IMG/VR virus record: IMGVR_UViG_3300015207_000448
Reading direction: 5' to 3' (one strand)
DNA length: 64,000 bases
Origin: a virus
Taxonomy: Duplodnaviria > Heunggongvirae > Uroviricota > Caudoviricetes
A program made the position numbers and the translations under genes. Shown here in pieces: positions 5,340 to 59,460 of the stretch. The notes under the pieces were generated by a model, which saw only the letters and a program-made list of their open reading frames with translations, was not told where the DNA came from and did no database searches. Every line of letters begins with the position of its first letter. Positions within the stretch are counted from its first letter, which is position 1.

Positions 5340-5618
5340 ATGAATACAGAAATTCAAACAACGAAGTTGGATGGCACTATCTCATACATGATTGATAAGG
5401 CATCAGCCTTATCGTCCAACTTGGAAGTGCTGAAAATGGCTCTTCCAAAAGAAACACAAAACTTAATGGTTGGACGGGCAAATCCCATAACCATTAGAGG
5501 TATTCTTGACAACCAGACCGCTTGTCTTGATGAACTCAACTCTCTCATTACGGAACTAAGAACTGAACTTAAATGCCTTACCACGTCATCCTCTCAGATT
5601 CAGACGGCGAATCAGTAG
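5340..5618 (+). CDS. Small hypothetical protein, first gene of the target-1 operon
   Basis: ORF immediately downstream of the conserved motif. Confidence 0.3.
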   Translation: MNTEIQTTKLDGTISYMIDKASALSSNLEVLKMALPKETQNLMVGRANPITIRGILDNQTACLDELNSLITELRTELKCLTTSSSQIQTANQ

Positions 5619-6031
5619 TCGGAATCTGTGGCACCCTTGAAGCTGCTAAAGAGCATCTTCGTAGTGTTCGATATTACCCCTCTTATATGAGAAGCGTCGA
5701 GAGTTTGGATATTTCCGATGACGAAATGTCTGGTACCGGCTATGATGAGAGTGGGCATTTCACATACTCAATCAAAACAGCATAACATGAATGAGCGCCA
5801 ATACTTTGTGATTATGCCCAACGGACATCTCTTGTTCGTGGAAATCACCCCAGAACGTAAAAGCGTGATTGACGATGAATTTTCCGGAGACGAAGAAGAA
5901 TACCTCTATACGGTTCTATCTGAAGAATTTGACTTTTCAGTCAACGATGTTGACTGGTCAATTGTGCCGGATTCATGTATCACTTGCTTCGGCAGAAACC
6001 CTTCGATAACAAAACTATAAACATTATAACA

Positions 6032-6829
6032 ATGGAATTGAAAAACGAACTTAAAAAGTTTATCGTTGACCGTACCACCCGGTACAACGTAATGGCTAAG
6101 AGCCAGGAAGCCGCTGAACTTGCTGCGGCAGGAGGAGTGATTTTCGGCAATCTGTCTGCGGATGCCGACCAGTTCTCAGTTTACCCTGAGGGAACAGAGG
6201 GTCAAGACGGCCTCAATCTCACGTCCAAGGACAATTCAACGCTTGACAACATCAAAGCTGAGGTCAAGCGTACCGGTGAAACACAAATTCTCATTGCGAT
6301 AGTTGGTGGAGGCTTTCTCACGAGAGACGAATATGCACACGCCAATGGAACGGACTTTAAGGATGCCGTCATCGGTATCGCTGTCATCACTCCGCTTATT
6401 TCTTTCATCGTGGGGCTCACTGAATGGAAGGAGCGCTGGAGTGAAGATGACGAGCATGTCGTGACTGAATCTCACACCGAAGCTCAAGCCTTCCAGGTTG
6501 TTTCCGGTCTGGAGCATACCCGTCAACTTGTCGATTGGCAAGAAGATGAAGGCAATACTGCCGCAAAAATGTGCTGGAACTACAAGCATAAAGGGCTTCA
6601 GTGGTATCTCCCGTGCCTGCTGGAGCTCAATGCCATCTGTGCAAACAAAGAAGAAATCAATGTGCTTCTGAAACTCGTCGGCGGTACGCCGCTCAGTTTG
6701 GATGAATGTTATTGGTCGTCCACTGAGCACTCGGCTGGCTACTCGTGGTTCGTCTACTTTGGCAGTGGTCTTAGCTACTACGGCAGCAAGTGCGGCACTA
6801 ACGTGGTTCGCCCTGCTGTTGCCATATAA
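6032..6829 (+). CDS. DGR-type target protein 1 with a DUF1566/C-type-lectin-like C-terminal domain
   Basis: C-terminus ECYWSSTEHSAGYSWFVYFGSGLSYYGSKCGTNVVRPAVAI is a DUF1566 signature (W-LP ... YWSST ... VR-V); paralogue of 11922..12590 with identity concentrated at the 3' end. Confidence 0.7.
   Translation: MELKNELKKFIVDRTTRYNVMAKSQEAAELAAAGGVIFGNLSADADQFSVYPEGTEGQDGLNLTSKDNSTLDNIKAEVKRTGETQILIAIVGGGFLTRDEYAHANGTDFKDAVIGIAVITPLISFIVGLTEWKERWSEDDEHVVTESHTEAQAFQVVSGLEHTRQLVDWQEDEGNTAAKMCWNYKHKGLQWYLPCLLELNAICANKEEINVLLKLVGGTPLSLDECYWSSTEHSAGYSWFVYFGSGLSYYGSKCGTNVVRPAVAI
6710..6826 (+). repeat. Variable region VR1, 117 nt
   Basis: Nucleotide-identical to 12471..12587 except at 7 codons, where only positions 1 and 2 differ and position 3 is fixed (cac/ggc, ttc/cgc, ctt/ggt, tac/ggc x2, ggc/tac, aac/tac). 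This pattern indicates adenine-specific mutagenesis of AAC codons. Confidence 0.6.
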
Positions 6830-6850
6830 GCTCAATCTTTAATCTTCACT

Positions 6851-6875
6851 GCCGGGCCAGTTTCTCTGGCCCGGC
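6851..6875 (+). promoter_or_regulatory. GC-rich hairpin 21 nt downstream of the VR1 stop (gccgggccag-tttctc-tggcccggc)
   Basis: Perfect 9-10 bp stem with no U-tract; identical copy after VR2; resembles the hairpin needed for DGR target recognition. Confidence 0.5.
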
Positions 6876-6894
6876 TATAAATCAAATCTCGATT

Positions 6895-7101
6895 ATGAAT
6901 AAATACCTGATATATACTGGACAGGGTTGGACAGAAGACCCCAATGGGGAGCGTGTTGAAAATTGCCAAATTCTTGGCAGAGCCGAAGGTGAAAATGAGG
7001 ATGATGCTCTTGATAGTTTCCTCAAAAATAACCCTTGGGTGGAAGAAAGTGGGTTTGATGAGTTTGATTTGGCCCAGCTTCACGACACAGAATGGGTATG
7101 A
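6895..7101 (+). CDS. Small acidic protein
   Basis: ORF track. Confidence 0.3.
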   Translation: MNKYLIYTGQGWTEDPNGERVENCQILGRAEGENEDDALDSFLKNNPWVEESGFDEFDLAQLHDTEWV

Positions 7102-7276
7102 AACAGAGATATACCGTCAACGTCCATTATGATGCAGTTGTCACAGTGGACGTAATTGCTAACTCGGAAGAGGAAGCTGTCCAAAAAGCACTATACAAAG
7201 CTGAGGACATTTCGCTCGAAGATGCTGAGGTATTCGACATCAACTGCTGTGTGACAAATATAGAAGATTTATACCC

Positions 7277-7852
7277 ATGAGAATCTACGAAGAAAAAGCG
7301 CTCAAAGATTTCGATTTTTGGAGCGGTGGCGCAGATAGAGCAGCCAACTTAACTGATGAAGAGTTTGACTCAGTGGAGCGATTGTTTGAGGAACTATATC
7401 CGGACGGTATGAGTGATACCGAAATCAACGACTTTTTCTGGTTCGATTTCGACACAATCGCGCAGCATCTTGGCTACGAGGACGAGGAAGATTTCGACCG
7501 GAAGCACGACCCCAACTACATTGAAGATGATGACCTTGAAGAGTATATTGAGGAGTATTGGAGAGAATATCTCGATACAATCTTTGAAGAACAAGGTGAA
7601 GATGGTCTTAGATTCATCGTGACTGACTTGTTCGGGGACGATCCGGAAGAAGTTTTAGTGGACTACAAAGAAGAGGCATTTGACGAATCACCCAGAGGTA
7701 TCTTCTATCATTATCTCAATGTTCGCTACGATAGCAGCGAACTTATGGAAACGCTCTTTGACAACGATCAGGGTTGGGATGTGCTCGACAATTTTCCCAC
7801 AAAAGAAGAGTTCCGCGACGAGATGATGGATAAAAAGAAAACATCAAAATAA
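7277..7852 (+). CDS. Highly acidic hypothetical protein; paralogue of 62669..63274 (minus strand)
   Basis: Shared FWSGG-DRA-N-T-EE and WFDFDTIAQHLGYEDEEDFDR-HDPNY blocks; D/E-rich. Confidence 0.5.
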   Translation: MRIYEEKALKDFDFWSGGADRAANLTDEEFDSVERLFEELYPDGMSDTEINDFFWFDFDTIAQHLGYEDEEDFDRKHDPNYIEDDDLEEYIEEYWREYLDTIFEEQGEDGLRFIVTDLFGDDPEEVLVDYKEEAFDESPRGIFYHYLNVRYDSSELMETLFDNDQGWDVLDNFPTKEEFRDEMMDKKKTSK

Positions 7853-7859
7853 TACGACT

Positions 7860-8501
7860 ATGTTAATGACATTTAATGAATATGTCATCGACTGGTGGAA
7901 AGACTATCTTTCCTTTATCGATGAGAGTACTGCCAAACGAATCATGGAAAACGAGTTCATTGGCGAAGAAGAAACTGTAGAAGATTACATCCCTGAAGAT
8001 GCTGAAAGCGTGATTGACTGGCTTGACAAACAGGACGACGATGGTGAGAAAATTTACAAGATTTTCTTCGGCCCTGAAGCTACCGATTGCGTGTACGACA
8101 ATGTCCCCGATACTGATACGTTCCTCACAGATATGTTTATGCACTGTGCTGGTTGGTACAACAATCCAGACAGCGAATCAAAGCCCAGCTTTGCTGAAAG
8201 TTTTGTAGCAGATATGGCCTATCACGCTGAAGATTACGAAACTCCGCTCGGCTTTTTTCAAGACCTGACCCACGGATGTCAATCCGGTATGATTGGTATG
8301 CTCATCTACAACTCCGACTGCAAGGAAATCTACATCAAGCATATTGACGATATGGAAGAGTGGAAGTTAGAGGAAGAGGAAAGCCTCGGAGAATCAATTC
8401 GTAACAAAAATCATATTCCACACTATACTTGGATGTGCTGGCTGTGTTACGAAGAACTTGGTTTCCAGATAGCTCGAATATTATTCCCTGATACATTTTG
8501 A
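7860..8501 (+). CDS. Acidic hypothetical protein
   Basis: ORF track; D/E-rich. Confidence 0.4.
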   Translation: MLMTFNEYVIDWWKDYLSFIDESTAKRIMENEFIGEEETVEDYIPEDAESVIDWLDKQDDDGEKIYKIFFGPEATDCVYDNVPDTDTFLTDMFMHCAGWYNNPDSESKPSFAESFVADMAYHAEDYETPLGFFQDLTHGCQSGMIGMLIYNSDCKEIYIKHIDDMEEWKLEEEESLGESIRNKNHIPHYTWMCWLCYEELGFQIARILFPDTF

Positions 8502-8504
8502 TCG

Positions 8505-8879
8505 ATGGAACTACAAGAATGTATTGACCTAATCACTCAATGTGCTGAAAACAATGGGTGGGGAGTCTATGCCACTCCTGATGACAGAGATGGTAGTGTT
8601 TGCTTTGAATTTAACACATCCACGCCTTGCGGACAAGACTTTTGGATTACCTGCTATTTGGCAGACAACGACCCTCATACTCTTGTTCAAAATGTCTATG
8701 ATTACTGGCAAAGTTATGATCCTGACTATGAAGCAACTTTTTGGATTGGCGATGACGGCCATGGAAAGAATGGTGCTCCATATCATATCATAGATATAGT
8801 TCGTGACATGGAGGCCGCTGAAAAGCGAATAGCAGAACTTTATGATGCCCTCAGTGAATTAGATTTCGATGAGGATTAG
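8505..8879 (+). CDS. Acidic hypothetical protein; homologous to the middle part of 50416..51345 (minus strand)
   Basis: Shared Y-SYDP--EA--WIGDDGHG-NGAP motif. Confidence 0.45.
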   Translation: MELQECIDLITQCAENNGWGVYATPDDRDGSVCFEFNTSTPCGQDFWITCYLADNDPHTLVQNVYDYWQSYDPDYEATFWIGDDGHGKNGAPYHIIDIVRDMEAAEKRIAELYDALSELDFDED

Positions 8880-8900
8880 TCAACAAATAAACTCCAAACA

Positions 8901-9767
8901 ATGAAAACAGAACTTGAAGCGCTTGGCTTTACCGGATTTTACCAAGGAATATGGGACCAAGGTGAAAACGAATATGGCGCCATGCAGATGCTGAAGTATG
9001 GCGATTATGACGACATTGAAACCCTTGAGTTTATCGAATATTGGGGTTTCGGAGAGGATTACCGTGAGAAGGTGATGAAGGAGTATGCAGAACGTTACGT
9101 TGAATTTGTGAATGATGTGCTTGGAACTGATTTCGCATTGACATCTCAATCGTTGTGGTCTCCGAAAGAATATAATTTCCAGACGGACAAAGTATTTTGC
9201 GATGTCGAAATTGAGGATTTTGATGGACTCGTGGACAGGCTTGTCAAAATGGTTTCAACAGACCTCGATCTCTACAATGTTATGCGCAAGACCATCCACG
9301 ATAATCACACCAGTTGCAGCGGTTTCATTTCGTTTATGGATAACGATATTGATGAATGGTTTGGCCTCATTCAAGACCCTGAGAACACAACCTATTTCTC
9401 ATATTTCATCGCTTATTTGGTTAATGCCATCCAGCCTGGTTCTCTGCGTCAACTCAACGAAGACATCTATGGGTACGTATCAGAAAACACAGATTGGCAT
9501 TTACCAGTGCCTGAGACCGACGAGGCAAAAGAAGAGTACCAGTTATACTCTGAACATCGTGACACCTACACTGAGTTTCTTAAAGAGTACCGGAAGAACC
9601 ATGTGGATCCTACAAGACAAGATTGGCCGGAGGATGATCGCCGCCGCTACGATGTGGATTGGGACGAGTTCAAGGAAGCCTTCTCGGAACACCTTGAATT
9701 TCTTGAGGCAGAAAGAAAACGCCTCGAATATCTGAGAAATCAACCTGTAATACCCGGATTAGAATGA
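8901..9767 (+). CDS. Acidic hypothetical protein; paralogue of 61492..62199 (minus strand)
   Basis: Shared blocks FTGFY, PKEYNF--D-V, WF--I-DP-NT, TDEAKEE, LRNQP-IPGL. Confidence 0.5.
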   Translation: MKTELEALGFTGFYQGIWDQGENEYGAMQMLKYGDYDDIETLEFIEYWGFGEDYREKVMKEYAERYVEFVNDVLGTDFALTSQSLWSPKEYNFQTDKVFCDVEIEDFDGLVDRLVKMVSTDLDLYNVMRKTIHDNHTSCSGFISFMDNDIDEWFGLIQDPENTTYFSYFIAYLVNAIQPGSLRQLNEDIYGYVSENTDWHLPVPETDEAKEEYQLYSEHRDTYTEFLKEYRKNHVDPTRQDWPEDDRRRYDVDWDEFKEAFSEHLEFLEAERKRLEYLRNQPVIPGLE

Positions 9768-10069
9768 AACTGATATTTCCTCTCCCAAATGGAGAGCAGC
9801 TTGACCTTTTTGACGAGGGGCCAAACGGAATGGATTACATCTGTACTGTTAGCGGCGAATACAAAACCGGAGTGATTGGTCTTGTGGAAGAATACGAGCG
9901 AGAAAAGAATCCGCAGCGTCGCCTCAAAATCGATGATGAGATTCACGACCAAGCTTACTACTATGTCGATTCGATAGCCATGTGTGATGAAGAGCTTCAG
10001 TCAATGATAAGTTTAACTGATCTGGCTGAACAAATCTATCGTGCTATCATAACATTTGCCAGAATATGA
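9764..10069 (+). CDS. Hypothetical protein
   Basis: ORF track. Confidence 0.3.
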   Translation: MKLIFPLPNGEQLDLFDEGPNGMDYICTVSGEYKTGVIGLVEEYEREKNPQRRLKIDDEIHDQAYYYVDSIAMCDEELQSMISLTDLAEQIYRAIITFARI

Positions 10070-10632
10070 CGGAGAAAAGAAAACTCGCCGACTGTTTTGA
10101 AAACGGTTGGTTCAAAGCGGAATACCTTTGGGAACTTCGCCAAGAGATTGTTCTTGGTAGTCTGTATTACGCTGACTATCGCAACTCATTTGGAATTGAT
10201 GAACACAAAGTGCGTGACTTTTTCACAAGTTTTTGGGATAGCTTCTGTGAGGAGCTTGCCAAGGAAGACAATCTGTGGGAAGAAGCTTGTATTATCACCC
10301 GTGACCATTTTGAAGGCGACACGAATGTAAGTCCTGGCAAATACGATTTGTTTCGCGAAGAGACGTATCAAGAATTATTTCAGAAACGCTACGATAACGA
10401 AGATACACTCAAAAATTGGTATGGCTGTTTCTGTGATGATTGTCCACTTCCTCCCAAGATGGTTAATGTGGACATTTACTGGCAATTTCACCGTTCAATT
10501 CATGTTATTGCTGGGACCGAAGATGAAGCGGAAGAAATCGTGAATGAAATGATGAGAAACCGCGAGATTCCGACAGAATCGTTTGAACCGGATGACGATT
10601 GGGATCTCGACACAACCTATCAACCTGATTGA
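10066..10632 (+). CDS. Acidic hypothetical protein
   Basis: ORF track. Confidence 0.4.
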   Translation: MTEKRKLADCFENGWFKAEYLWELRQEIVLGSLYYADYRNSFGIDEHKVRDFFTSFWDSFCEELAKEDNLWEEACIITRDHFEGDTNVSPGKYDLFREETYQELFQKRYDNEDTLKNWYGCFCDDCPLPPKMVNVDIYWQFHRSIHVIAGTEDEAEEIVNEMMRNREIPTESFEPDDDWDLDTTYQPD

Positions 10633-10984
10633 CATGGACAAAAACTTACAAACAAGATACTGCACCGAATGTGGTTCATCTGACGTCAGTTCAATGGCTT
10701 GGGTAAACAATGCCACCGGAGAAATTGAAGAATACATCGGATATGACAGAGACCCCGAATATAATTTTTGCCATCACTGTAATTGCTCGGTAGCAATTAT
10801 GACTCTCGAAACTATGTGGAAACACTTCAGTGAAATACCCATAGATTCTGAGGATTGCATCGAAACTGATTTTCTCTTTTTTGAGAAAGATACCGACCGA
10901 AATCATATCTGGCACTGGTTCGATGAAAGATGCCCGAATGGTCTTGCAATAGATCTGATGGGCGAGCAACCTAAACAACAATAA
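10583..10984 (+). CDS. Cys-rich hypothetical protein; its C-terminus is paralogous to 60902..61495 (minus strand)
   Basis: Shared C-terminal IWHWFD--CPNGLA-DLMGE; CTEC ... CHHCNC cysteine pairs. Confidence 0.45.
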   Translation: MNRMTIGISTQPINLIDMDKNLQTRYCTECGSSDVSSMAWVNNATGEIEEYIGYDRDPEYNFCHHCNCSVAIMTLETMWKHFSEIPIDSEDCIETDFLFFEKDTDRNHIWHWFDERCPNGLAIDLMGEQPKQQ

Positions 10985-10985
10985 T

Positions 10986-11579
10986 ATGAAATGTACATAT
11001 TTTCACTCTAAATACAAGGAGCTGGAGGCACAAGAGTACCGAGAGCTTGCTGCTGCGGTCAAAGCGCATGGCGGCGAATATGTCTTCTTTGATTGTAATC
11101 AAGAAGATGCTGATGATAAATGGCGCGAAGCTGATGGCCATGATGACATTCCAGTCATCAATGGTTGTCATCAGTGTATGGACAAAGACGATAGCTTCTA
11201 TGTAACTCGTGTCTCACTCGATGAGTATGGAAATCCTCAAATATTTGGATTCCGAGATGAATACGGATGCCCTTCAGATGAGGATAGGCTGTATAACATT
11301 CAATTTGGCTATCTCGACAACATCATCACGGAAATTCCTGAGACCGAGGAAGTACATGATGTACGAGAACTGCCCAAGCTAAATTCGATGCCGGTGCTGG
11401 TTCTCAGTCGAGAAGACCTCGAAGTGAAGGGTTACGACCCTGAAATGACTGACGATGAGTTTTTCACACTTGGAAATTCCGTAGCCAAACATCTTGATAT
11501 GGATGACTTTTGGCTGGCACTGGAGTATGCTTGTGATTACTTAGGTGTAAAACGATTAAACGAAGCAGACGATGAATAA
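10986..11579 (+). CDS. Acidic hypothetical protein; paralogue of 59733..60116 (minus strand)
   Basis: Shared AAVKAHGGEYVF / AAIKAHGNEYVF and IPETEEVHDV / IPETDEVQDV. Confidence 0.5.
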   Translation: MKCTYFHSKYKELEAQEYRELAAAVKAHGGEYVFFDCNQEDADDKWREADGHDDIPVINGCHQCMDKDDSFYVTRVSLDEYGNPQIFGFRDEYGCPSDEDRLYNIQFGYLDNIITEIPETEEVHDVRELPKLNSMPVLVLSREDLEVKGYDPEMTDDEFFTLGNSVAKHLDMDDFWLALEYACDYLGVKRLNEADDE

Positions 11580-11847
11580 AGATTTTAATCGCTGGGAGTT
11601 CATTGAAAAGTGGCTTCCAAACTATTCATCCGATCAAGATGTGGCATGGTCAAACGACTTGTCAAAATATCTTGCCGGAGAATACGACTATCAAGACCCG
11701 TATGACAGAGACCGTATCAATGCAATAGCAGAAGTTTGTGCTACTGCTGAAGACGCCAAAATTGAGCTCGAAAGGGTTGACTGCGGATTGTTTTTGGAAG
11801 CACTGGAAGCATACCAAAGACAGAAAGAGAAAATTAACGAGTGTTAA
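11572..11847 (+). CDS. Small acidic protein
   Basis: ORF track. Confidence 0.3.
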   Translation: MNKDFNRWEFIEKWLPNYSSDQDVAWSNDLSKYLAGEYDYQDPYDRDRINAIAEVCATAEDAKIELERVDCGLFLEALEAYQRQKEKINEC

Positions 11848-11905
11848 AGTGTACAACTTTTCACACCTCTAATACAAAACAAATCTATTCGATAATAAAC
11901 AACCA
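11843..11905 (+). promoter_or_regulatory. Conserved promoter/leader motif, copy 2
   Basis: tgttaaagtgtacaacttttcacacc ... ctattcgataataaacaacc about 20 nt upstream of the target-2 start. Confidence 0.4.
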
Positions 11906-11921
11906 ATTAAATCAAAGACAA

Positions 11922-12590
11922 ATGTCACAGTTAAATGTACTTCAGGAGCTGAGGGCTTCACTTGCCTTCGCCAACCGCTTTGACATCGCCAAAGCAAAAG
12001 ATGCCTACGATTTTATCATAGGCGAAAACGAGGAACAGCCTACCCTAAATGTGAACGTAGCGCCGCTTTCAGATGGAATCTACTATGTTATCAACGACAA
12101 AACGCTCGTTCCGGTAGCTCACCTTGAAACCGTCAACAAAGCAAGAGTTATCGGCGTCGCAGTTAAGATGTCCGACAAGATTGCGACTGTTGCTCTTCAC
12201 GATGCAGCTGATGGAGAAGAAGTCGCGCTTACCACAACAGAGAATAACGGCTCGTCAGAGTTTTTCCGTCCCGACTTTTGGGATGCGATGTCTGACTGGA
12301 ATGGCGAGGCCAACACCAAGGATTACGGCGACGACCTCAATCCGGCAATCAACCTTCAGCCTGGACAGTACATCCCGTCGCTCGCTCAGCTTCATCTGAT
12401 TCTCCTTAACATCAAGGAGGTCAATGCTGCTCTTGAAGCAGTGGGCGGCACACCGCTTCGCAAAGAGTGGTATTGGTCGTCCACTGAGGGCTCGGCTGGC
12501 TACTCGTGGCGCGTCTACTTTGGCAGTGGTGGTAGCGGCGGCGGCAGCAAGTGCTACACTTACGTGGTTCGCCCTGCTGTTGCGATATAA
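11922..12590 (+). CDS. DGR-type target protein 2 with a DUF1566/C-type-lectin-like C-terminus
   Basis: ORF 11841..12590 (GTG start) with probable Met start MSQLNVLQEL; C-terminus EWYWSSTEGSAGYSWRVYFGSGGSGGGSKCYTYVVRPAVAI. Confidence 0.7.
   Translation: MSQLNVLQELRASLAFANRFDIAKAKDAYDFIIGENEEQPTLNVNVAPLSDGIYYVINDKTLVPVAHLETVNKARVIGVAVKMSDKIATVALHDAADGEEVALTTTENNGSSEFFRPDFWDAMSDWNGEANTKDYGDDLNPAINLQPGQYIPSLAQLHLILLNIKEVNAALEAVGGTPLRKEWYWSSTEGSAGYSWRVYFGSGGSGGGSKCYTYVVRPAVAI
12471..12587 (+). repeat. Variable region VR2, 117 nt
   Basis: See VR1; the region from the VR through the downstream hairpin (about 12458-12651) is about 90% identical to 6697-6890, whereas the upstream coding sequence has diverged synonymously. 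Confidence 0.6.
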
Positions 12591-12611
12591 GCCTTACTCT
12601 TCATTCTTTCT

Positions 12612-12636
12612 GCCGGGCCAGTTTCTCTGGCCCGGC
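12612..12636 (+). promoter_or_regulatory. GC-rich hairpin 21 nt downstream of the VR2 stop
   Basis: gccgggccag-tttctc-tggcccggc, identical to the copy after VR1. Confidence 0.5.
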
Positions 12637-12659
12637 TATAAATCAAAATCTGAGATTAG

Positions 12660-12977
12660 ATGCCCTATAAGAGCGAGAAAATCAATATCGCCGGAACAAA
12701 ATACGATAGGCGTCGTAAACTCAGTCCCGATCAGGTCAAAGCAATCAAACTTCTCAAAGAAGAAGGATATAGTTATCGTCAACTCGCTGCCATGTTTAAT
12801 TGCAGTAAATGGACGATTCAAAACATAATCAATCCACAAATTAACAAACAACCAATCAAACGACCTACATCATATTGGACTGAGAAAAAGCGACAATATC
12901 GACAAAGAAAGGAAGCACTTTTCAAATCCGGAAAAATCAATGCGAAAAACAAAAGAAGTCGAGCCTATAAGAATTGA
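12660..12977 (+). CDS. Small, very basic helix-turn-helix protein lying between target 2 and RT1; possible DGR accessory or regulator
   Basis: SPDQVKAIKLLKEEGYSYRQLAAMFNCSKWTIQNII is an HTH motif; K/R-rich tails; it occupies the position where Avd usually sits, but no Avd-like features were recognised. Confidence 0.45.
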   Translation: MPYKSEKINIAGTKYDRRRKLSPDQVKAIKLLKEEGYSYRQLAAMFNCSKWTIQNIINPQINKQPIKRPTSYWTEKKRQYRQRKEALFKSGKINAKNKRSRAYKN

Positions 12978-13182
12978 AGATTTCATACAATCAGTATTAG
13001 CACTCAATGGTCTGAAACGCGGAAGAGATTTCAAAGTTTCCGGTAGGCAGTTATGGATTAAGAAAAATCCACTCCGAGGTAAACTGATTGTAATGTTGAA
13101 AAATACGTTCTCTGAGTATAGCTATTACTGGGAATCACCTCAAATTCTTAGATGGTTTTAACCCACAAAAACAGGAAATTAC

Positions 13183-14442
13183 GTGGACAAGATATTAGAA
13201 AAATTCTTCGAGCTTGAACGATGGGAATATGCCATTGACAAAGGCTTGGGAAAAGGAATTTCAAAAGCACAACTCTACCAGCTAACGAAGCCGGAAACAA
13301 GGGTTGCGATGTATGAGGCCATTCGAGATGGTAAGTACGAAATAGCACCACCTCACACTGCCAAAATACCCAAAGATAATGGCGAGTTCAGAACAGTTTA
13401 TATCAATGAACCGGCTGATCGAGTTTTATTGAGTATTGCCAATGATCTTCTGTTTGAATTGATGCCTGAGATGGTTCATCCGCAGTGTCAGTCATACCAG
13501 AAGGGAATTGGTTGTGGTAAGATTGTACAAGAAGTATCTCGAAAAATATGCGACACGAAGGGCGAAGTCATCGGTTGGAAGGCCGACTTTAGCAAGTATT
13601 TTGATAGTGTGCCGGTAAGGTTCATTGATGAAGCCTTTGACAAAGTTGAAGCGAAACATGGACATTCGGCACTGATTGATGTATTGCGAAAGTATTATCA
13701 TTCCGACTATTTCTTCACTCCTGAAGGTGAGCTGATGCAATCGTACCAATCATTGAAGCAAGGGTGCTCCGTCGCATCTTGGCTGGCTGATGTGGCCCTA
13801 TGCCACCTCGATGAACGGCTGTCTCAACTGGATGGCTACTATATTCGCTACTCTGATGATACGCTATTTGTCGGAGCTGATTACGAGAAAGCTATGGTGA
13901 TTATGGAAGATGAATTACATCAGATGGAAATGAAACTCAACCCCAAGAAAGTTGAGTATCTGACTCCTACGAAGTGGTTCAAATTTCTGGGGTTCTCAAT
14001 CAAGGGGGCTGCAATCTCACTCAGTTCAACCCGCATAAAGAAATTCCAAAAAGAGATTGAGAGGTTGACGATCAAAGCAAAGGATATTACGCTCCAAAAG
14101 GCTATCAATTCTGTAAATCGTTTTCTTTATAAAGGCTACGGTGAACATAGTTGGGCCACTCAAATATTACCTATTTGCAATGTCCACTCTGACATCCACG
14201 AATTGAATTGTTTTGTGATGGATTGTCTGAGAGCAGTAAAGACTGGTAAGAAGAAAATAGGCGGTCTTGGTTATGTGGTCACACAGGAGCAAGGCTGTAT
14301 TTCACGAGGCATTGGAAAGAACGTCAAGGCTAACCGTGAGAAAACAGCTAATATGATAAACCGATATTTGACGCTCTCTTGTATGCAAAATGCAATGCGT
14401 ACAAGCCGAGACGCTTATCGGACTTTGGTCGCTTCTCTCTAA
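13183..14442 (+). CDS. Reverse transcriptase RT1, of group II intron-like / DGR-type
   Basis: RT motifs present: PKDNGEFRTVYINEP, WKADFSKYFDSVP, LKQGCSVASWLADVAL, YIRYSDDTLFVG (YxDD), LNPKKVEY, FKFLGFSI; about 100 aa of C-terminal extension beyond the thumb. Confidence 0.85.
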   Translation: MDKILEKFFELERWEYAIDKGLGKGISKAQLYQLTKPETRVAMYEAIRDGKYEIAPPHTAKIPKDNGEFRTVYINEPADRVLLSIANDLLFELMPEMVHPQCQSYQKGIGCGKIVQEVSRKICDTKGEVIGWKADFSKYFDSVPVRFIDEAFDKVEAKHGHSALIDVLRKYYHSDYFFTPEGELMQSYQSLKQGCSVASWLADVALCHLDERLSQLDGYYIRYSDDTLFVGADYEKAMVIMEDELHQMEMKLNPKKVEYLTPTKWFKFLGFSIKGAAISLSSTRIKKFQKEIERLTIKAKDITLQKAINSVNRFLYKGYGEHSWATQILPICNVHSDIHELNCFVMDCLRAVKTGKKKIGGLGYVVTQEQGCISRGIGKNVKANREKTANMINRYLTLSCMQNAMRTSRDAYRTLVASL

Positions 14443-14444
14443 CT

Positions 14445-15800
14445 AAGTATGTGGAGGCAAAGAATGATTGAGCAATCATTTAGTCATTGCGGCAGAATCC
14501 ACCGAGGAGAACGCGCTGATACCGCGTGCTCCTCCCGTTACGCCCGCCGCCAGACATCAAACAGATATAGCAACATACAATTCAATCTGACTTTGCCAAA
14601 AACCAAGTGTATGGATATATTCAACGGCTGCACACATTTAAGTGTCAGCAGGCAAATCGGGAACCGTTCTGTAAACTTGAGATTCCGAAACGGAATCCAA
14701 GTTCCTACAGAGCGGGACACCGATAGCCTGCTGCCTATATCGAAACTATATAGCAATACACCAAGTGCAGTGATGAATACTAAACTGAGTATGCAGACGA
14801 AGTTGAATGGCGTACCGTTTCAGGACATGATCATATATCACCTGAGTCTTGACCAGGTTAGCACCGTGGTCAGACTCAAGTTCCACGATCATGTCTACAT
14901 CAAACTGATAAAGATACATACAAAGCGCATGACAACTTCAAATTTCGCCGGGCGTGCGGCTCACGATTGTAAATCTGCAATCTTCAATGTTAGACGAGTT
15001 GTATTCGAGCTGTTCACGGACACACTGGGTCCAGTTTCCAGCTCGAAACACTCGTCAACATATCGAGAAAATAAAGATACACGTAACAGGAACGCAATCG
15101 TACAATTGATAACAGCGTCGAGTATGAGGCAGGTGCTTAATCTTGAAAATTTCAATGGATCAGACATAACCAGAAGTTCGTCGATTCCATCCAATCGACG
15201 AACTTCTGGCTGTACTGATTTCATATCAAGCAGATTACAGAAACATACAAACTCAAGTGAAAGTGCCTCCGGTATGCGCCGGGCTAAAATCCAAGCAGAC
15301 GAGTTTAGAGATACAGTTATCAATAAGCCAGGTACGGGACATTCCGACCGGCCAACTAAGCCGGTTCTCCGTGTCCCGTGCCTGGCTTCTGAATACTGTA
15401 TTCATCAAGCCTATAAAGCACCGCATTGTGTCTGACAGGATTGAAAATAGCGCAAATGGGCCATCGGGATCAGAACATTTATCGTAGCTGGTTTCAACGT
15501 AAGGTCGTCATCTCCCAGTAGATAACTGGATATGACGTCCTTCGCTCACCAGCTTCTGAATCGAAGAGATATAGCAAGCGCCGCTCTGATGAGATTGTCC
15601 GTAAAAGTGTAACGTAACATTTATATGCAAGAGGCCAAACTTCAATAACCCGCCGAGTCGAAGCCCTCCTGGATACAGGTAGGACCGACTACACAACGTT
15701 TCGTGGTCCATACCTGTATCCAGGAGGCCGCTGAACGGCGGGTTACATCTAAATCAATAGAGCAATACGTCATTGGCTTTGAGCATCTAATTTTTTAATC
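14445..15800 (+). other. 1.35-kb hairpin-dense noncoding region 3' of RT1; candidate RT-associated structured RNA or regulatory region
   Basis: Perfect or near-perfect long stems, e.g. ccagaagttcgtcgatt/aatcgacgaacttctgg (17 bp) and cctcctggatacaggta/tacctgtatccaggagg (17 bp) nested inside cccgccg/cggcggg, ggagaacgcgc/gcgtgctcctcc, gagtcttgacc/ggtcagactc. The only ORF here (14449..15435) is low-complexity and has no paralogue. Confidence 0.4.
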
Positions 15801-16277: not shown

Positions 16278-17384
16278 ATGGCAAAGAAAAACCCCAACCC
16301 CAGTACAAAAATCGTATGCCCCGTGTGCGGTACAGAGTTTGCAATCCCCGAAAAAACTCACGTTGCTGTCGGTATCGTCGTAGGTGCAGACAGCGGTCTT
16401 GGCACCATCTACCCGGCAACGACAGGAGCCACCCAAACTCCGGCACCCAGTGCTCAATCTCAGAAGAAAGCGACTGAGAAGATTGAGGCTTTGCACATGG
16501 CCGGGGTTAATGTTGACAACCTCTTCAGTATGAAGAGCGCGTCCGGTCAGGAAATCATCGCCCGTATGGAAAACGGAAACCTCTCCGTTGTTCCCGACAA
16601 TGACCCGATTTTCGCAGTTATCATGGGACGTGGTACCGTGCCTAACCGCCGACTCTTCCGTCGCTGGGTGATGGCTCAGGTCTTCCACATGCTCAACTAC
16701 AAGTCCTATCGCGGAAACAAAACAGGTTTCGTTGCTGCACTCGAAGCCAAAGGTTACAAGTATCAGTGGAAGATGGTTCTTGAGGAAATGCGAGTACAGG
16801 CTAAGCTCGCCGCTGAAGACCCTGAGAACTTCGCACTCCGTAACCGCTGGTTCAACGATGGCCGCATCATGCAAATGGGCGTGGACTATCTGGAGCAGCT
16901 TGTGGCTCATATCAACAAGCTGAAGGTTCGTCACTGCAAAGGCGTGCCCTATGTTAAACTGGGCGGCAGAAACGTGTTTACTGCTGACATCCAGACTAAG
17001 GTCATTGACCCTATCGTGAAAGCGATGGCGAAAATAGGTGAGGCTGACACCCCTCAGAAACTTTACTACGCAGTCAATGCTGCTGTAAGATTCATTCAGC
17101 AATGGTGGTTCACCAACGACGCTTGTATGTCTCAGGCTTTCAAAGACGCATACAAGGGAGCTGGTGCATACTTCACTATGCAGAACCTTATTCTCTTCCA
17201 CGGGGCCAGTTTCAAAAATGGCTGCATCAAGCTTGGCCAGAAGAAATCTCTGGCTATGCTTGAGAACAAGGCTCACGAATATGCAACTTCACAGGAAGGC
17301 TGGCGTCTGTTCGGTGTGATGAAGAAACTCATCGCTGATTCTGGTATCAATATCGGAAAGAAGATGGAAGAATGGCGAAAATAA
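16278..17384 (+). CDS. Zn-ribbon-containing hypothetical protein; paralogue of 52182..53270 (minus strand)
   Basis: N-terminal CPVCGTEF; shared blocks AGVNV-NLFS, VVPD-DPIFA, RRLFRRWVMAQVFHM, FKDAYKGAGAYFT--NLILFH. Confidence 0.5.
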   Translation: MAKKNPNPSTKIVCPVCGTEFAIPEKTHVAVGIVVGADSGLGTIYPATTGATQTPAPSAQSQKKATEKIEALHMAGVNVDNLFSMKSASGQEIIARMENGNLSVVPDNDPIFAVIMGRGTVPNRRLFRRWVMAQVFHMLNYKSYRGNKTGFVAALEAKGYKYQWKMVLEEMRVQAKLAAEDPENFALRNRWFNDGRIMQMGVDYLEQLVAHINKLKVRHCKGVPYVKLGGRNVFTADIQTKVIDPIVKAMAKIGEADTPQKLYYAVNAAVRFIQQWWFTNDACMSQAFKDAYKGAGAYFTMQNLILFHGASFKNGCIKLGQKKSLAMLENKAHEYATSQEGWRLFGVMKKLIADSGINIGKKMEEWRK

Positions 17385-25966: not shown

Positions 25967-26354
25967 TATGGAAGATACTGTATTATATGGTCATGCTCTC
26001 GTTCTGAAAGAACTTGGATTTAACAGACCTACGGAGTTTTACTTCACGAAGGAAGACGCTCCTAAATCTATGGTTTGGCGTAAACGTGCTGAAGTGCTCA
26101 ATTATAATGGAGATACAGGGCTTCCTCCCAAAGTTTCTGCCCCCACTTTCTATGAGGCAGCGAAATGGCTTCGAGAAGTCAAAAACTGGAGTGTCCGAGT
26201 TAACTATTCCAGAGAAAATCGTGAATGGTTCTACGACATCCTCAATATGGAAACTGGGGATTATGATGACGGAGGTGATTGCTACTTCCAGTCATACGAA
26301 GAAGCGTTTTCTGCCGGCGTATCGGCAATATTGTCAAAACTTACGACAAATTGA
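25959..26354 (+). CDS. Hypothetical protein
   Basis: ORF track. Confidence 0.3.
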   Translation: MSDMEDTVLYGHALVLKELGFNRPTEFYFTKEDAPKSMVWRKRAEVLNYNGDTGLPPKVSAPTFYEAAKWLREVKNWSVRVNYSRENREWFYDILNMETGDYDDGGDCYFQSYEEAFSAGVSAILSKLTTN

Positions 26355-26406
26355 TATGGTGGCACAAGCCACAATAATCCACCTAAAATACATAATAGCC
26401 ATGTAA

Positions 26407-26667
26407 ATGAAATTCATAGAAGCCATTGGCCAGTGGTTCCGCAAAGTGCGGGAACAATACCACGAAGAAAGACAACAGAAGCGCTGTCACTATCTTGACA
26501 ACCTCAGTTGTGAGAGTATCAATGTAACAGAGTTTAACGGACGTTTACACATCTCCTACAAGGGTGTGCCTATCGTTAGAGTAGATGACCTCAAAGGCAA
26601 AGCCCCTGAAATACTGGCGCAATCCCGTGAGGACTATCTGGCATGGAAAGCTAAATTTAACGCATAA
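26407..26667 (+). CDS. Small hypothetical protein
   Basis: ORF track. Confidence 0.3.
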   Translation: MKFIEAIGQWFRKVREQYHEERQQKRCHYLDNLSCESINVTEFNGRLHISYKGVPIVRVDDLKGKAPEILAQSREDYLAWKAKFNA

Positions 26668-26919
26668 TTCGATATGAGACAATCGAACTTCAAGACAAAC
26701 GACAAGGTTATAATCGTGAGCAACGGTCTTCAACCTCAGTATCAAGGGAAGACCGGGAAAATCAAGAAAGTTTACCCCTCCTTCAGCGAGAACGATGCGG
26801 AAGAACACGAGTTCTTCTATCGCGTTGAAGTTGACGGCACTGTTCTAAAAGGAATTGCTCGTGATTCCGATTTGAAGCCGCAATAAAAGACTCAAATCAA
26901 AAGTAAATCTTGTTGACTG

Positions 26920-26965
26920 GACGAGAACCGGGAGCCTCCTAAACCTTCTGGTTCTCGTCTTTTTA
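26920..26965 (+). terminator. Rho-independent terminator, followed by a candidate promoter
   Basis: gacgagaacc ... ggttctcgtc ttttt; then ttgcaaagttagcaaatatttaattga. Confidence 0.55.
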
Positions 26966-27027
26966 TATTTGCAAAGTTAGCAAATATTTAATTGATAATC
27001 AAATAAATCATATAAAAAGAAACAACA

Positions 27028-27210
27028 ATGGCAAGAACTGCAAACAAGAAAGCACCTGGGAAATCAACACGTCCCACAGACTACGAACCTCAGCCTGGTC
27101 ACAAGGCAACTCTCAGCCTCGCTGATTTTACTGACAACGACTTATTCGCAGAGCTCCGGCGCCGTGGTTACAATGGTGAGCTTCGTTCACTTAAAGTTGT
27201 GACGGTATGA
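27028..27210 (+). CDS. Small basic protein with a C-terminal LFAELRRRGYNGELR motif; paralogue of 50226..50408 (minus strand)
   Basis: The 43 C-terminal residues are about 80% identical between the arms, far above the 40-50% seen for other paralogue pairs. Confidence 0.5.
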   Translation: MARTANKKAPGKSTRPTDYEPQPGHKATLSLADFTDNDLFAELRRRGYNGELRSLKVVTV

Positions 27211-27446
27211 GAAATTTCAACCCTAAGGCACTTTGCAACAAGTGTCAAATCAAGAAAGCCTCAGGTCTTCACTCTTGTCCTTTCGAGCAGAAACACATGT
27301 GTCCTGACTATCAGGCTTATGTCGCAGATAATGCGTTACAGTTTGAGGACTCTGCGCTCCAAATTCCAGTAGAGTCGTTGCTGACCGCATTGAGATTTCA
27401 CGGTTACTCTGGTGAGCTTCGCAAATCAGAGATCGTAGTAATCTAA
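27207..27446 (+). CDS. Small Cys-rich protein ending in GYSGELRK; paralogue of 49966..50229 (minus strand)
   Basis: CNKC ... CPF ... C cysteines; C-terminal GY-GELR motif shared with the upstream gene. Confidence 0.45.
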   Translation: MRNFNPKALCNKCQIKKASGLHSCPFEQKHMCPDYQAYVADNALQFEDSALQIPVESLLTALRFHGYSGELRKSEIVVI

Positions 27447-27519
27447 TAGTAGAATATTCAGTTGAATACATAGAATCTCCCTAATTTTTATTAACTTTGC
27501 AGCAGCTTTATTGCTAAGG

Positions 27520-27700
27520 ACATATTAGAAAAAGTGCCTCACACCTTGTGAAATCGCCAAAATAATCACGTAAGCACGAGGCACGGTGACAGCTCATATA
27601 TCGTGGGCTGCCTAACCGTGCGTGTTTACAGGTGTTTGGCGATACCTACAAGGAAAGCATGGGAGGGCAGTCCACTTTTCTTGTGCCTATGCTGCGAAAC
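27520..27700 (+). other. Candidate structured 5' leader RNA upstream of the membrane-protein genes
   Basis: Long-range pairing ccttgtgaaatcgccaaa / tttggcgatacctacaagg enclosing cacgaggcacggt / accgtgcgtg. Confidence 0.25.
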
Positions 27701-28093: not shown

Positions 28094-28542
28094 GAAAGAA
28101 GTTAATCATATTAGGTAAGACTTTAATTATCTTAGGCTTCCTGAATCCTATTCCTATCGGTTTTCTCGGATTGACACGTTCAGCTAAGATAATCTGGGAT
28201 GGTAGTGAATATTCCAGTCCTTACGATTATTGGTGGCCCGGCCTCATCCTGATCATGGTTGGGTTTATATTGTGTAGACTGTCGGGAGGCAAACCAATTG
28301 CACTATACAACAAAAAAATCTGGAAGGAAGAAGCAAGGTCGTGTGTTAAAGGATTTGCTTGGGCGATATTGGGTTCATTGGCGCTCGTTGCAGCGTTCTT
28401 GTTAGTAGTGTCATCGATTGTCGGCATATATTATGCTTTCTTCTCTAAATATATGCCGACCCTATTGCCTATATGCGGTGGAGTATGTGTTTTGGCCTAT
28501 TTAATTTATATAGGATTCCGAATCTATAAAAATACTAAGTGA
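28090..28542 (+). CDS. Membrane protein
   Basis: ORF 27991..28542, start MRKKLIIL; 4 predicted TM segments. Confidence 0.4.
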   Translation: MRKKLIILGKTLIILGFLNPIPIGFLGLTRSAKIIWDGSEYSSPYDYWWPGLILIMVGFILCRLSGGKPIALYNKKIWKEEARSCVKGFAWAILGSLALVAAFLLVVSSIVGIYYAFFSKYMPTLLPICGGVCVLAYLIYIGFRIYKNTK

Positions 28543-31478: not shown

Positions 31479-31563
31479 GGGTTAATGACGGAATTGGTAG
31501 ACGTGTCGGTCTCAAACACCGATGTTGAAAGACGTCCGGGTTCGACTCCCGGTTAGCCCACCA
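31479..31563 (+). tRNA. tRNA-Leu (CAA), type II with a long variable arm and an encoded CCA
   Basis: Acceptor gggttaa/ttagccc, anticodon loop ctCAAac, T-arm ccggg-ttcgact-cccgg. Confidence 0.7.
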
Positions 31564-31595
31564 AGAGAACATTTACATTTTAATCACCAAACATT

Positions 31596-32420
31596 ATGAA
31601 ACATTTCATTAAACTGTTTCTCGCACTGATTGTGTGCGTTGCAGTCTCCAGCTGTCATGGTGTCCGGCCTGAAGCTGACGAGGAAGCTGTGTTAATCAAA
31701 AAGCCGTGGTTCTTTGGGCATGGCGGTGTTGACTTGGAGCCGGTAAATACTGGCCTCACATGGTGCTTCTGGAGCACATCCTCAGAGTCGTTCAAGATTA
31801 CTCCTGTGCGTTATGAGGAAACCCTCGATGACATCATCTCTAACGAAAACACTCCGCTCGACTTCAAGACGCAGATTATCCTGCGCATTAAGAAAGGTAA
31901 GAGTCCGGTGCTTTTGCAGAACTACGGAGTCAACTGGTATGAGAACAACGTCAAAGAAGTTTACAACAACCTTACTCGACATTATGTCTCCCAGTATTCG
32001 CCATTTGATTTGACCAGTAACCGAGAAGTTGTCGCTCATATTGATTCTTGTGTGAAAGCCGACATGATCCGTTACATTGACCGACTATCTGTGGAGAAAG
32101 AATTTCCCATTGTTGTCGAGAATGTCATTACCGGTCGAGCGATTCCTAATGCAGCGCAGCTGAAGGAGATGAACAACACTGCGGCTCAGATTCAGGCAAA
32201 GCAAACTCAGGAGCGACGATACGAAACGGAGGTTGCACGAGAGCAGGCTGAACGACAACGCGCAGTATCAGATAAAGCCTATCAGCGAGAAATGGGTCTG
32301 ACTGCGGAACAGTTCATCAGTTTGAAAGCATGGGACGTAATCAACTCTAAGCAGGGTGCAAACATTGATGTCCTCTTCGATGGAGGCGCTTCCAGTACCA
32401 TGTGGAATATCAAGCGATGA
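31596..32420 (+). CDS. SPFH/band-7-like lipoprotein
   Basis: Signal peptide plus lipobox (VSSC); central beta-rich domain; C-terminal Ala/Gln/Arg-rich coiled coil. Confidence 0.45.
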   Translation: MKHFIKLFLALIVCVAVSSCHGVRPEADEEAVLIKKPWFFGHGGVDLEPVNTGLTWCFWSTSSESFKITPVRYEETLDDIISNENTPLDFKTQIILRIKKGKSPVLLQNYGVNWYENNVKEVYNNLTRHYVSQYSPFDLTSNREVVAHIDSCVKADMIRYIDRLSVEKEFPIVVENVITGRAIPNAAQLKEMNNTAAQIQAKQTQERRYETEVAREQAERQRAVSDKAYQREMGLTAEQFISLKAWDVINSKQGANIDVLFDGGASSTMWNIKR

Positions 32421-32496
32421 CAGTAATCCGCAATTAGAGATCACTATTAAACAAGAAACCGCAAAGAAGCAATATCCTTTGAGCCTTTGCGGATTT

Positions 32497-32569
32497 GGGG
32501 CCATAGCTCAGTTGGTAGAGCATCTGCTTTGCAAGCAGAAAGTCCGCAGTTCGAGTCTGCGTGGTTCCA
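32497..32569 (+). tRNA. tRNA-Ala (TGC)
   Basis: ggggcca acceptor with a G3-U70 pair, D-arm tagctcagttggtagagc, anticodon loop ttTGCaa, T-arm cgcag-ttcgagt-ctgcg. Confidence 0.75.
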
Positions 32570-32718: not shown

Positions 32719-32720
32719 CA

Positions 32721-32791: not shown

Positions 32792-32796
32792 CTATT

Positions 32797-32869: not shown

Positions 32870-32885
32870 CAAATTGATATAGAAT

Positions 32886-33422: not shown

Positions 33423-33431
33423 ATAATATAC

Positions 33432-58664: not shown

Positions 58665-58745
58665 TAAAAGTTAAACCCCTTTATCCCTAACTCGCTACGC
58701 TCGTGTCGCTACGCTCCAAGGGTTAAAGGGATAAAGGGGTTAAGG
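58665..58745 (-). promoter_or_regulatory. Large hairpin immediately 3' of the VR3 stop: a 15-bp stem (aacccctttatccct / agggataaaggggtt) and a 38-nt loop containing a gagcgtagcga direct repeat
   Basis: Read directly from the sequence; could be the DGR target hairpin or a terminator. Confidence 0.4.
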
Positions 58746-58746: not shown

Positions 58747-59460
58747 TTAATGAAATGCTGCCACAGCGCGGACGTAGAGGCTGCTCGTGGCCTTAGTGCC
58801 CCAGCCGTTGAGGCTGCCGCCGTACAGGGACAAGCCCCAAGCGTACGTCGCCGAGCCCTCAGTGCTGGTCCAATACCAGCCATCCTTAATGCGGCTACCG
58901 CCGCTAAGTTCGATGGCGGCATTGATTGAACGCTTGTTGAGATAGATGAGATAGAGTTCAGCAACTGAAGGGATCCACTCGTCATCCTCCAGCTCTATGC
59001 CGGTGCCGATAGACTTGATATGCTCAGTGTTTGACTGGCCGTTCCAATCAGCAACAGCATCATCATATTCAGTGATGTAACCGTCATAACCGCCGGGGTC
59101 TTTCTGGTTGGTAAGGGGCTGTTCCGGATAATCCTCCAGATTGACTGCGAGAGCATGGCGACCCATCACTACGCCGATACGCTTTACCGTCTTTGTCGGA
59201 GCATTGCGCTTCTTGTAGTCGAACTTTTCAACTGTGTTATCCTCGTAGATGTAGTACACTCCATCATTCAGAATGGCTTGATGAGAGCCTTCAGTCTGCT
59301 GAATGTCGATTTTGATTTGCTCAACCTCCTTTATCGGAGATTTGATGAAGTCATACACAGCCTGTGCTTCTTCACCGAAGTCACTGAAGAGAGCAAGTTT
59401 CAGCTTCTCATCCATCGGAAGAGAAGCGTAGATGGTTTTTGCGATTTCGTCTGAGATCAT
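58747..59460 (-). CDS. DGR-type target protein 3 with a DUF1566/C-type-lectin-like C-terminus
   Basis: EWIPSVAELYLIYLNK ... DGWYWTSTEGSATYAWGLSLYGGSLNGWGTKATSSLYVRAVAAFH. Confidence 0.7.
   Translation of the reverse strand: MISDEIAKTIYASLPMDEKLKLALFSDFGEEAQAVYDFIKSPIKEVEQIKIDIQQTEGSHQAILNDGVYYIYEDNTVEKFDYKKRNAPTKTVKRIGVVMGRHALAVNLEDYPEQPLTNQKDPGGYDGYITEYDDAVADWNGQSNTEHIKSIGTGIELEDDEWIPSVAELYLIYLNKRSINAAIELSGGSRIKDGWYWTSTEGSATYAWGLSLYGGSLNGWGTKATSSLYVRAVAAFH
58750..58875 (-). repeat. Candidate variable region VR3
   Basis: GC-rich (about 62%) C-terminal segment homologous to VR1 and VR2 at the protein level; boundaries inferred. Confidence 0.45.

Follow-up and report, generated by a model that had tools for sequence, protein, structure and literature searches.

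In the diversity-generating retroelement (DGR) of phage BPP-1, a structure lying past the variable repeat (VR) is required for efficient homing, and it is the pairing of its stem that matters, not the stem sequence (Guo et al. 2011, PLoS Genet 7:e1002414; PMC3240598). This structure is an inverted repeat, rich in GC, which forms a hairpin or cruciform and is missing from the template repeat (TR); the sequence of its loop, for which the listed phage examples give a 4-nt GRNA consensus, also mattered, and in other phage DGRs stems of 7-10 bp lie 4-34 bp from the VR (Guo et al. 2011). A broader survey, in which the GRNA loop was not a criterion, described phage DGRs with non-adjacent targets within ~50 kb and DUF1566-type VRs (Wu et al. 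2018, NAR 46:11; PMC5758913). Here, we analyze a stretch of 64,000 nucleotides (the window) from the Caudoviricetes record IMGVR_UViG_3300015207_000448, which contains two identical GC-rich hairpins just downstream of two DGR variable repeats, VR1 and VR2. We propose that these hairpins are very probably cis-acting target-site tags for mutagenic retrohoming of the BPP-1 type.

As in BPP-1, the element is a GC-rich inverted repeat placed just past the region of TR/VR homology (28 nt at both loci) and absent from the TRs of relatives of this phage. Its stem length of 10 bp and its distance of 26-28 nt from the VR, across the family described below, fall within the values reported for phage DGRs. 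Each hairpin has the form GCCGGGCCAG-TTTCT-CTGGCCCGGC, a perfect 10-bp stem (9/10 G/C) closed by a 5-nt loop, rather than the 10/6/9 split given in the first-pass annotation of this DNA, which was off by one. That annotation had correctly placed the same hairpin 21 nt after two stop codons, both of them TAA: the window has exactly two copies of the 25-mer GCCGGGCCAGTTTCTCTGGCCCGGC, both on the plus strand (Table 1), and no further copies were found there with up to 3 mismatches allowed (0 expected from shuffles). Folded as single-stranded DNA, the hairpin reaches -14.9 kcal/mol, with z = -7.2 and -5.8 against shuffles for the two copies. When the 64 kb (42.6% GC) was scanned for perfect stems with a minimum of 9 bp and 70% GC and with loops of 3-8 nt, these two sites alone were returned, compared to a shuffle mean of 0.01. 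The earlier remark that the hairpin lacks the U-tract of an intrinsic terminator also held, as no T-run follows it on either strand and a terminator scan of positions 5500-13500 made no call; its 3' neighbours are TATAAATCAAA on the plus strand and, on the minus strand, AGTGAAGATTAAAG at locus 1 or AGAAAGAATGAAGAG at locus 2. Rfam, at gathering thresholds, detected six tRNAs only in the window and gave no match at either hairpin.

The hairpins belong to a segment shared by the two loci, previously described as a near-identical stretch of 195 bp and in fact a mosaic repeat of 183 nt with 85% identity (6704-6886 vs. 12465-12647). Within this repeat, VR1 and VR2 are identical at 99/112 positions, and all 13 differences lie at template-adenine positions, in codon positions 1 and 2 (13 among 34 adenine sites vs. 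0 among the other 78 positions). The 21-nt spacers that follow the stop codons are identical at 10/21 positions (48%), and the hairpin with the next 11 nt at 36/36. Outside the shared segment, identity falls on both sides to 20-25%, the level of unrelated sequence (25% over the 100 nt upstream). Pfam family PF07603 (Lcl_C, formerly DUF1566) matches the C-termini of both target proteins at scores below the gathering score.

The TRs of closer relatives differ from VR1 and VR2 by 18-22 mismatches, all at TR adenines, and by 0/78 of the non-adenine positions. Taken separately, VR1 showed 18-19 such mismatches and VR2 21-22 (related loci L022, L129 and L174-183), so that differences restricted to TR adenines, the hallmark of a DGR variable repeat, were found over the full 112 nt of both; in VR1, the TR adenines map to codon positions 1 and 2. 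These TRs are carried by IMG/VR contig 3300045988_132205, metagenome contig OLOX01000164.1 and ten mouse-gut contigs whose reverse transcriptase (RT) is assigned by NCBI to Duncaniella muris. They sit between homologues of Avd and of a DGR-type RT, just downstream of a target of ~2,185 aa. Compared to orthologues with flanks 92-100% identical, VR1 and VR2 differ at 17-22/34 adenine sites and 0-1/78 others. For VR2 and its orthologues L007, L086 and L115, 21/34 adenine sites and 0-1/78 other sites differ, next to 120 nt of downstream sequence that are 100% identical. Since orthologues with near-identical flanks differ almost only at adenine sites, VR1 and VR2 appear to be currently rewritten, and the pattern indicates that they are genuine DGR variable repeats undergoing diversification now.

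It should be noted that at positions 6820 and 12581 both VRs of the window read GCTGTTGC, where every related TR or VR seen reads GCTGTAGC (all other distinct VR flanks, 14 full-length metagenome TRs and 10 mouse-gut TRs). The change is synonymous (GTA to GTT, Val). Either a T in the phage's own TR was copied to both VRs, or both acquired it in parallel; no TR with the GTTGC variant of the window was found, 14/14 full-length metagenome TRs and 10/10 mouse-gut TRs having GTAGC.

The sole GenBank phage with similar DNA, Bacteroides phage BS-TP1 (PQ571274.1, 111,694 bp), illustrates how such a system is laid out. Its tail module contains a canonical cassette composed of the 6.5-kb target gene gp27, Avd (gp26), the TR and the RT (gp25), and besides the primary VR of this cassette there is a remote DUF1566 target, gp76. 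A hairpin follows both the primary and the remote VR, and none follows the TR. BS-TP1 resembles the window in its TR family, in a VR that is ~80% identical, in a neighbouring UG27-type RT (gp79, 74% identical) and in the hairpin itself, whose stem is the same, placed 28 nt past the end of the gp76 VR and closed by a TTTTT loop. It differs in having one DUF1566 remote target of this TR family, vs. two in the window. In the available portion of the BS-TP1 report (Gut Microbes 2025, PMC12694917), gp27 is named as the DGR target and gp76 is not mentioned. A separate observation concerns the annotation of these cassettes. The annotated DGR RT open reading frame (ORF) of BS-TP1 (26168-27649) reads through the TR as ...HWSSTENSAHNSWNVNFNNGNSNNNNKYNANVVRPAVA..., as do proteins P0002, P0006, P0029 and others, and many RT proteins of this DGR family have a precomputed Lcl_C (PF07603) match that comes from the translated TR. 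These ORFs probably have an over-extended start codon, which could mislead domain-based annotation.

To define the distribution of the hairpin, the stem was searched with any 5-nt loop in 2.9 million viral contigs and 596 Gb of bacterial genomes. The viral contigs gave 11 loci, and 11/11 hairpins were located 27-28 nt past GT(G/T)GTTCGCCCTGCTGTAGC, the 3' end of the VR. The bacterial genomes gave 55 loci. Four were in Bacteroidales contigs of 41-44% GC (two from Muribaculaceae Isolate-002, one from a Prevotellaceae metagenome-assembled genome and one from Prevotella sp. MGM2) and 4/4 followed a VR end; the other 51 were unrelated loci of 53-75% GC (48/51 at 60% or above), some with T-tracts and resembling local terminators. 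As 18/20 of the fixed palindrome bases are G or C, these 51 high-GC matches correspond to chance expectation. All 18 low-GC (Bacteroidales or viral) occurrences found lie 27-28 nt after a VR end. A dispersed palindrome akin to repetitive extragenic palindromes (REP) or miniature inverted-repeat transposable elements (MITE) was rejected, with two copies in 64 kb and 18/18 low-GC occurrences after a VR end; the broad terminator or REP-like element unrelated to the target genes, which had been named in advance as the outcome that would speak against a role in homing, was thus absent.

A reverse search, starting from the VR/TR 3' end, recovered VRs and TRs together. Every TR found continues with TCATCCGACAAAGGCTTGG... 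(TCATCCGACAAAGG...) and has no hairpin, every primary VR found has a different 10-bp stem (GGCGAGCTGC/GCAGCTCGCC) at 26 nt, and every remote DUF1566 VR of this TR family has GCCGGGCCAG/CTGGCCCGGC or a variant of it at 27-28 nt. Remote VRs have the loops TTTCT, TTTTT, TTTT or TTCTT, and primary VRs TTAAA, TTTAA or CTCTG. Measured from the end of TR/VR homology, the hairpin sits at a constant distance (26-28 nt), whereas its distance from the stop codon varies (21 vs. 15 nt, respectively, in the window and BS-TP1). The hairpin is retained in phages whose target proteins share only 57-63% identity. The first-pass annotation had suggested looking for this hairpin at a fixed distance from all DUF1566 VRs in related elements: it is there at the remote VRs of the TR family of VR1 and VR2, but not at a third VR in the window, VR3, which has another inverted repeat (see below).

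To ask what is conserved in the element, 24 distinct VR 3' flanks from primary and remote targets were aligned in register. In the 10-bp helix, 99.2% of cells are standard pairs, vs. 21-51% with the 3' arm slid by 1-3 columns. Compensatory changes affect 6/10 stem pairs and come from at least three separate stem variants. The primary and remote stem classes differ at five pairs, all compensated; among remote targets, at least four viral contigs, giving three distinct flanks, have a C-G to G-C change, and among primary targets a C-G to T-A change is seen in a single distinct flank that occurs at two loci. In one remote copy (L027), two of the stem pairs are mismatched. Sequence is conserved on either side of the stem: the spacer motif TCTTnAnTCTT is invariant across the 24 flanks and TA(T/A)AA after the stem nearly so, both being common to primary and remote targets and absent from TR flanks. 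These data indicate that what is conserved in the stem is its pairing rather than its sequence. The idea that the hairpin is a BPP-1-like target-recognition element is thus supported, on comparative grounds, by the adenine-only variation of the VRs, the restriction of the hairpin to VR ends at a fixed spacing, the lack of a hairpin after TRs and the covariation of the stem, all of which, like its anatomy, are direct observations.

Several points weigh against this interpretation. No TR for VR1, VR2 or VR3 was detected in the 64 kb by blastn (word size 7) or by an adenine-tolerant sliding scan of both strands, and tblastn found no homologue of the DGR RT (gp25) or Avd (gp26) in the window. Near-identical contigs that reach beyond it (99.8% identical at the right end and 96% at the left end) showed no TR, Avd or DGR RT within ~8 kb on the left or ~10 kb on the right. 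In addition, the loop of the window hairpin family is 5 nt long and T-rich (TTTCT/TTTTT), unlike the 4-nt GRNA loop of BPP-1, and inverted repeats of this kind occur in only 34% of DGRs and are not universal (Wu et al. 2018). As there is no cassette within the window, we infer from its relatives that one TR serves both loci in this genome. The earlier proposal that the same homing machinery serves VR1 and VR2 is therefore borne out in that one TR of the relatives fits both, with the correction that the machinery lies outside the window.

The hairpin could instead be primarily an RNA element, either a terminator lacking a U-tract or a stabilizer of the mRNA 3' end, with its link to the VR simply reflecting a position at the end of the gene. 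It is indeed very stable, lies in a 3' untranslated region and stands alone in a hairpin-poor region, and some DGR repeats look like terminators (Wu et al. 2018). We nevertheless consider this explanation quite unlikely: besides the missing T-run and the silent terminator scan, the next ORFs begin 19 and 23 nt past the stem (6895 and 12660), too close to fit a promoter should transcription end at the hairpin; the spacing is constant relative to the end of VR/TR homology (27-28 nt) but changes with respect to the stop; and the other genes of the window all lack a hairpin of this sort. An operator or regulatory site for the downstream genes, unrelated to retrohoming, appears less plausible still. 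The downstream genes are unrelated (a 68-aa ORF after hairpin 1 and an ORF for a helix-turn-helix protein, 12660-12977, after hairpin 2), even if a perfect palindrome directly upstream of a gene start at both loci, one of them encoding such a protein, is what an operator would look like. Moreover, the primary VR in the tail module, which precedes avd, is built in the same way around a different stem sequence, and an operator would be expected to conserve sequence, whereas it is pairing that is conserved here.

The identity of the two loci might also be a passive and functionless remnant, a VR-containing gene end having recently been duplicated or copied by gene conversion. The shared segment begins in the coding region and ends 11 nt past the hairpin, and the loops of two copies within one genome often match (in the window and in SCEG01000003.1), as would be expected from such an event. 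However, recency would not leave a spacer that is 48% identical beside 36 nt of hairpin and tail that are 100% identical, a contrast that argues for selection, and it accounts neither for the persistence of the hairpin where target proteins are only 57-63% identical nor for stems that change by compensatory pairs; in the relatives, stem mismatches have not built up freely, as a functionless leftover would predict. We regard this last explanation as extremely improbable.

If the hairpins are retrohoming tags, as we favour, the cassette would be located outside the window and would consist of a giant tail-fibre-like target with its own VR, followed by Avd, the TR and the RT. The TR RNA would be reverse-transcribed with misincorporation at adenines, and the cDNA would replace any VR bearing the right 3' signal. 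This signal would combine four elements: a GC-rich sequence at which TR/VR homology ends (GTGGTTCGCCCTGCTGTWGC), a non-homologous pyrimidine-rich spacer of 26-28 nt with the invariant TCTTnAnTCTT, a 10-bp GC stem-loop that could be extruded from the DNA in hairpin or cruciform form, and TA(T/A)AA. The TR would never be a recipient because it has neither spacer nor hairpin. VR1 and VR2 would be non-adjacent targets, allowing one TR to diversify the lectin-type tips of two small proteins that are unrelated in their other parts. By analogy with experiments on BPP-1 and Legionella, the hairpin would raise the efficiency of homing and act at the DNA level.

The kind of signal is already known, and what is new about it is minor: a T-rich 5-nt loop, an invariant spacer motif and class-specific stems. 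Like BPP-1, the window hairpin family keeps pairing while sequence varies and has no terminator T-tract; unlike BPP-1, it has the invariant TCTTnAnTCTT in its spacer and two stem classes, primary and remote, each conserved across diverged phages. The use of one TR to serve several VRs in trans is shared with the remote targets of Legionella LdtA and Treponema, and the remote targets of that survey likewise have their VR at the C-terminus of a DUF1566-type lectin fold and, in phage DGRs, lie tens of kb from the RT in the same phage (Wu et al. 2018). What sets the present targets apart is that these small proteins belong to the non-structural arm of a ~100-140 kb phage, lie directly upstream of UG27 RT modules and have a cassette wholly outside the window. 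A preprint on Bacteroides DGRs does not discuss inverted repeats, and the 'hairpins' of the Tentaclin paper are protein beta-hairpins, irrelevant to the DNA hairpin.

Table 1. Positions of the features discussed, in the window and in phage BS-TP1.
Feature	Position	Strand	Description or basis
Target gene 1	5975..6829	+	284 aa, small protein, C-terminal Lcl_C/DUF1566-type C-type-lectin domain; PF07603 E = 1.7e-6 (below gathering score), PHROG 4245
VR1	6711..6822	+	112 nt; gapless alignment to TRs of L022, L129, L174-183
Spacer 1	6823..6850	+	28 nt, pyrimidine-rich; last codon, stop 6827-6829, invariant motif TCTTTAATCTT at 6836-6846
Hairpin 1	6851..6875	+	arms 6851-6860 and 6866-6875, loop TTTCT 6861-6865; exact match, fold, GC-hairpin scan, covariation
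Tail 1	6876..6886	+	TATAAATCAAA, same at both loci; TA(T/A)AA near-invariant after all hairpins of this family
Target gene 2	11841..12590	+	249 aa, GTG start; N-terminal part unrelated to gene 1, lectin-type C-terminal end shared
VR2	12472..12583	+	112 nt; alignment to TRs of L022, L129, L174-183
Spacer 2	12584..12611	+	28 nt; stop 12588-12590, motif TCTTCATTCTT at 12597-12607
Hairpin 2	12612..12636	+	arms 12612-12621 and 12627-12636, loop TTTCT; exact match, fold, GC-hairpin scan
Tail 2	12637..12647	+	TATAAATCAAA; matches locus 1 exactly
Third Lcl_C gene	58747-59460	-	target of a different template family (TR2)
VR3	58757..58864 (about)	-	adenine-poor 3' segment of third Lcl_C gene
Inverted repeat after VR3	58674..58741	-	15-bp arms AACCCCTTTATCCCT (58727-58741) and AGGGATAAAGGGGTT (58674-58688), 38-nt loop; fold z = -3.9
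BS-TP1 primary VR, in gp27	28198-28345		cassette target
BS-TP1 Avd (gp26)			four-helix-bundle protein
BS-TP1 TR	27399-27510		
BS-TP1 remote DUF1566 target gp76	VR 78404-78535		~51 kb from TR, 90% identical to TR

VR3 is the target of another DGR family, whose template, TR2, is present in other viral contigs. Where VR3 is homologous to the TR2 of locus L144, all mismatches are at TR2 adenines. In contigs whose flanks are 99.85% identical, VR3 is very different, with a one-codon deletion among the changes; this hypervariability between near-identical flanks indicates that VR3 is also active. The primary VRs of the TR2 family have TATCTCTTCAACCCT ... AGGGTTGAAGAGATA at the same place as the inverted repeat that follows VR3, with 100% pairing and five compensatory pairs relative to it, and no inverted repeat was found in the TR2 flanks. 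TR2 was found neither in the window nor in BS-TP1, which, unlike the window, has no VR3/TR2-type sequence. The rule that the VR has a structure-conserved inverted repeat and the TR has none thus holds for two independent DGR families, the inverted-repeat element being particular to the individual DGR rather than to the DUF1566 fold. We also noted that the 38-nt loop after VR3 contains a direct repeat, GAGCGTAGCGA, present twice.

Two UG27-type RTs are encoded in the window, RT1 at 13183-14442 (+) and RT2 at 54554-55828 (-), and are 74% identical. RT1, which lies beside VR2, was considered as the DGR RT and rejected: its match to RT_UG27 (PADLOC) is full-length, with E = 8e-229, and where a DGR RT would have I/LGxxxSQ its finger motif is of the QG type. 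In BS-TP1, it has a 74% identical counterpart, gp79, and is unrelated to gp25, the DGR RT of that phage. Both window RTs are located downstream of a DGR-targeted Lcl_C gene on the same strand, and the genes downstream of the two RTs (16278-17384 and 52182-53270) are 46% identical. The lectin proteins of the two modules are 31% identical, and their genes are targeted by different TR families. Wherever a related locus has enough flank (L008, L014, L015, L027, L031, L086, L106, L159, L163 and L168), a UG27 RT lies on the same strand 0.6-3 kb downstream of the remote VR, whichever of the two families that VR belongs to.

These arrangements raise a possibility that we put forward tentatively and consider rather unlikely: the hairpin-tagged DUF1566 genes may not be stray extra targets but the conserved first gene of UG27 RT modules, DGRs having been recruited at least twice by a transplanted cassette of VR, spacer and stem. 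If so, the UG27 system would gain a hypervariable ligand-binding partner, and the class-specific stems, remote vs. primary, could act as an address code tuning which targets are rewritten. The UG27 group of RTs is known from gut phages, has an unknown function and a predicted non-coding RNA (ncRNA), and no mention of a DGR-targeted neighbour was found in the available portion of that report (Mestre et al. 2022, PMC9226505). The region 14443-15800 of the window, especially 15170-15209, may be the UG27-associated ncRNA proposed in the same source. A perfect 17-bp inverted repeat (CCAGAAGTTCGTCGATT, 6 nt, AATCGACGAACTTCTGG) occupies 15170-15209, inside an ORF without a family match (14449-15435). 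The 1,350 nt that follow the UG27 RT of BS-TP1, equivalent to 14443-15800, are unannotated, and the region after RT2 (53706-54553) has only ORFs of <70 aa.

Other features of the window were recorded alongside these modules. Between VR3 and the second UG27 RT, the minus strand has a PcfJ-like (56401-57696) and a PcfK-like gene (57718-58122), families usually tied to conjugative plasmids. Six tRNA genes are arrayed at 31479-33503, followed by a gene for a tyrosine recombinase (phage integrase) at 34849-36111. Coding orientation is plus over ~1-37 kb and minus over ~42-64 kb. Exact copies of right-arm proteins occur in 1,723 blocks of a public collection, and one left-arm protein on only 13 contigs, which suggests a mosaic window, one arm being rare and the other very common.

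Globally, our analysis confirms existing knowledge more than it surprises, and provides a clean, covariation-backed example of a DGR target hairpin in abundant phages of gut Bacteroidales (Muribaculaceae/Bacteroides). It cautions that an RT adjoining a VR is not necessarily the DGR RT. The combination of spacer motif, stem and fixed spacing offers a simple search key for orphan VRs whose cassette lies off-contig, and the minimal unit made of the homology end, the 26-28 nt spacer and the 10-bp stem is a candidate for retargeting DGR mutagenesis in Bacteroidales. For the phages themselves, such a tag would let a tail-fibre DGR reach small non-structural lectin-type proteins encoded tens of kb away.

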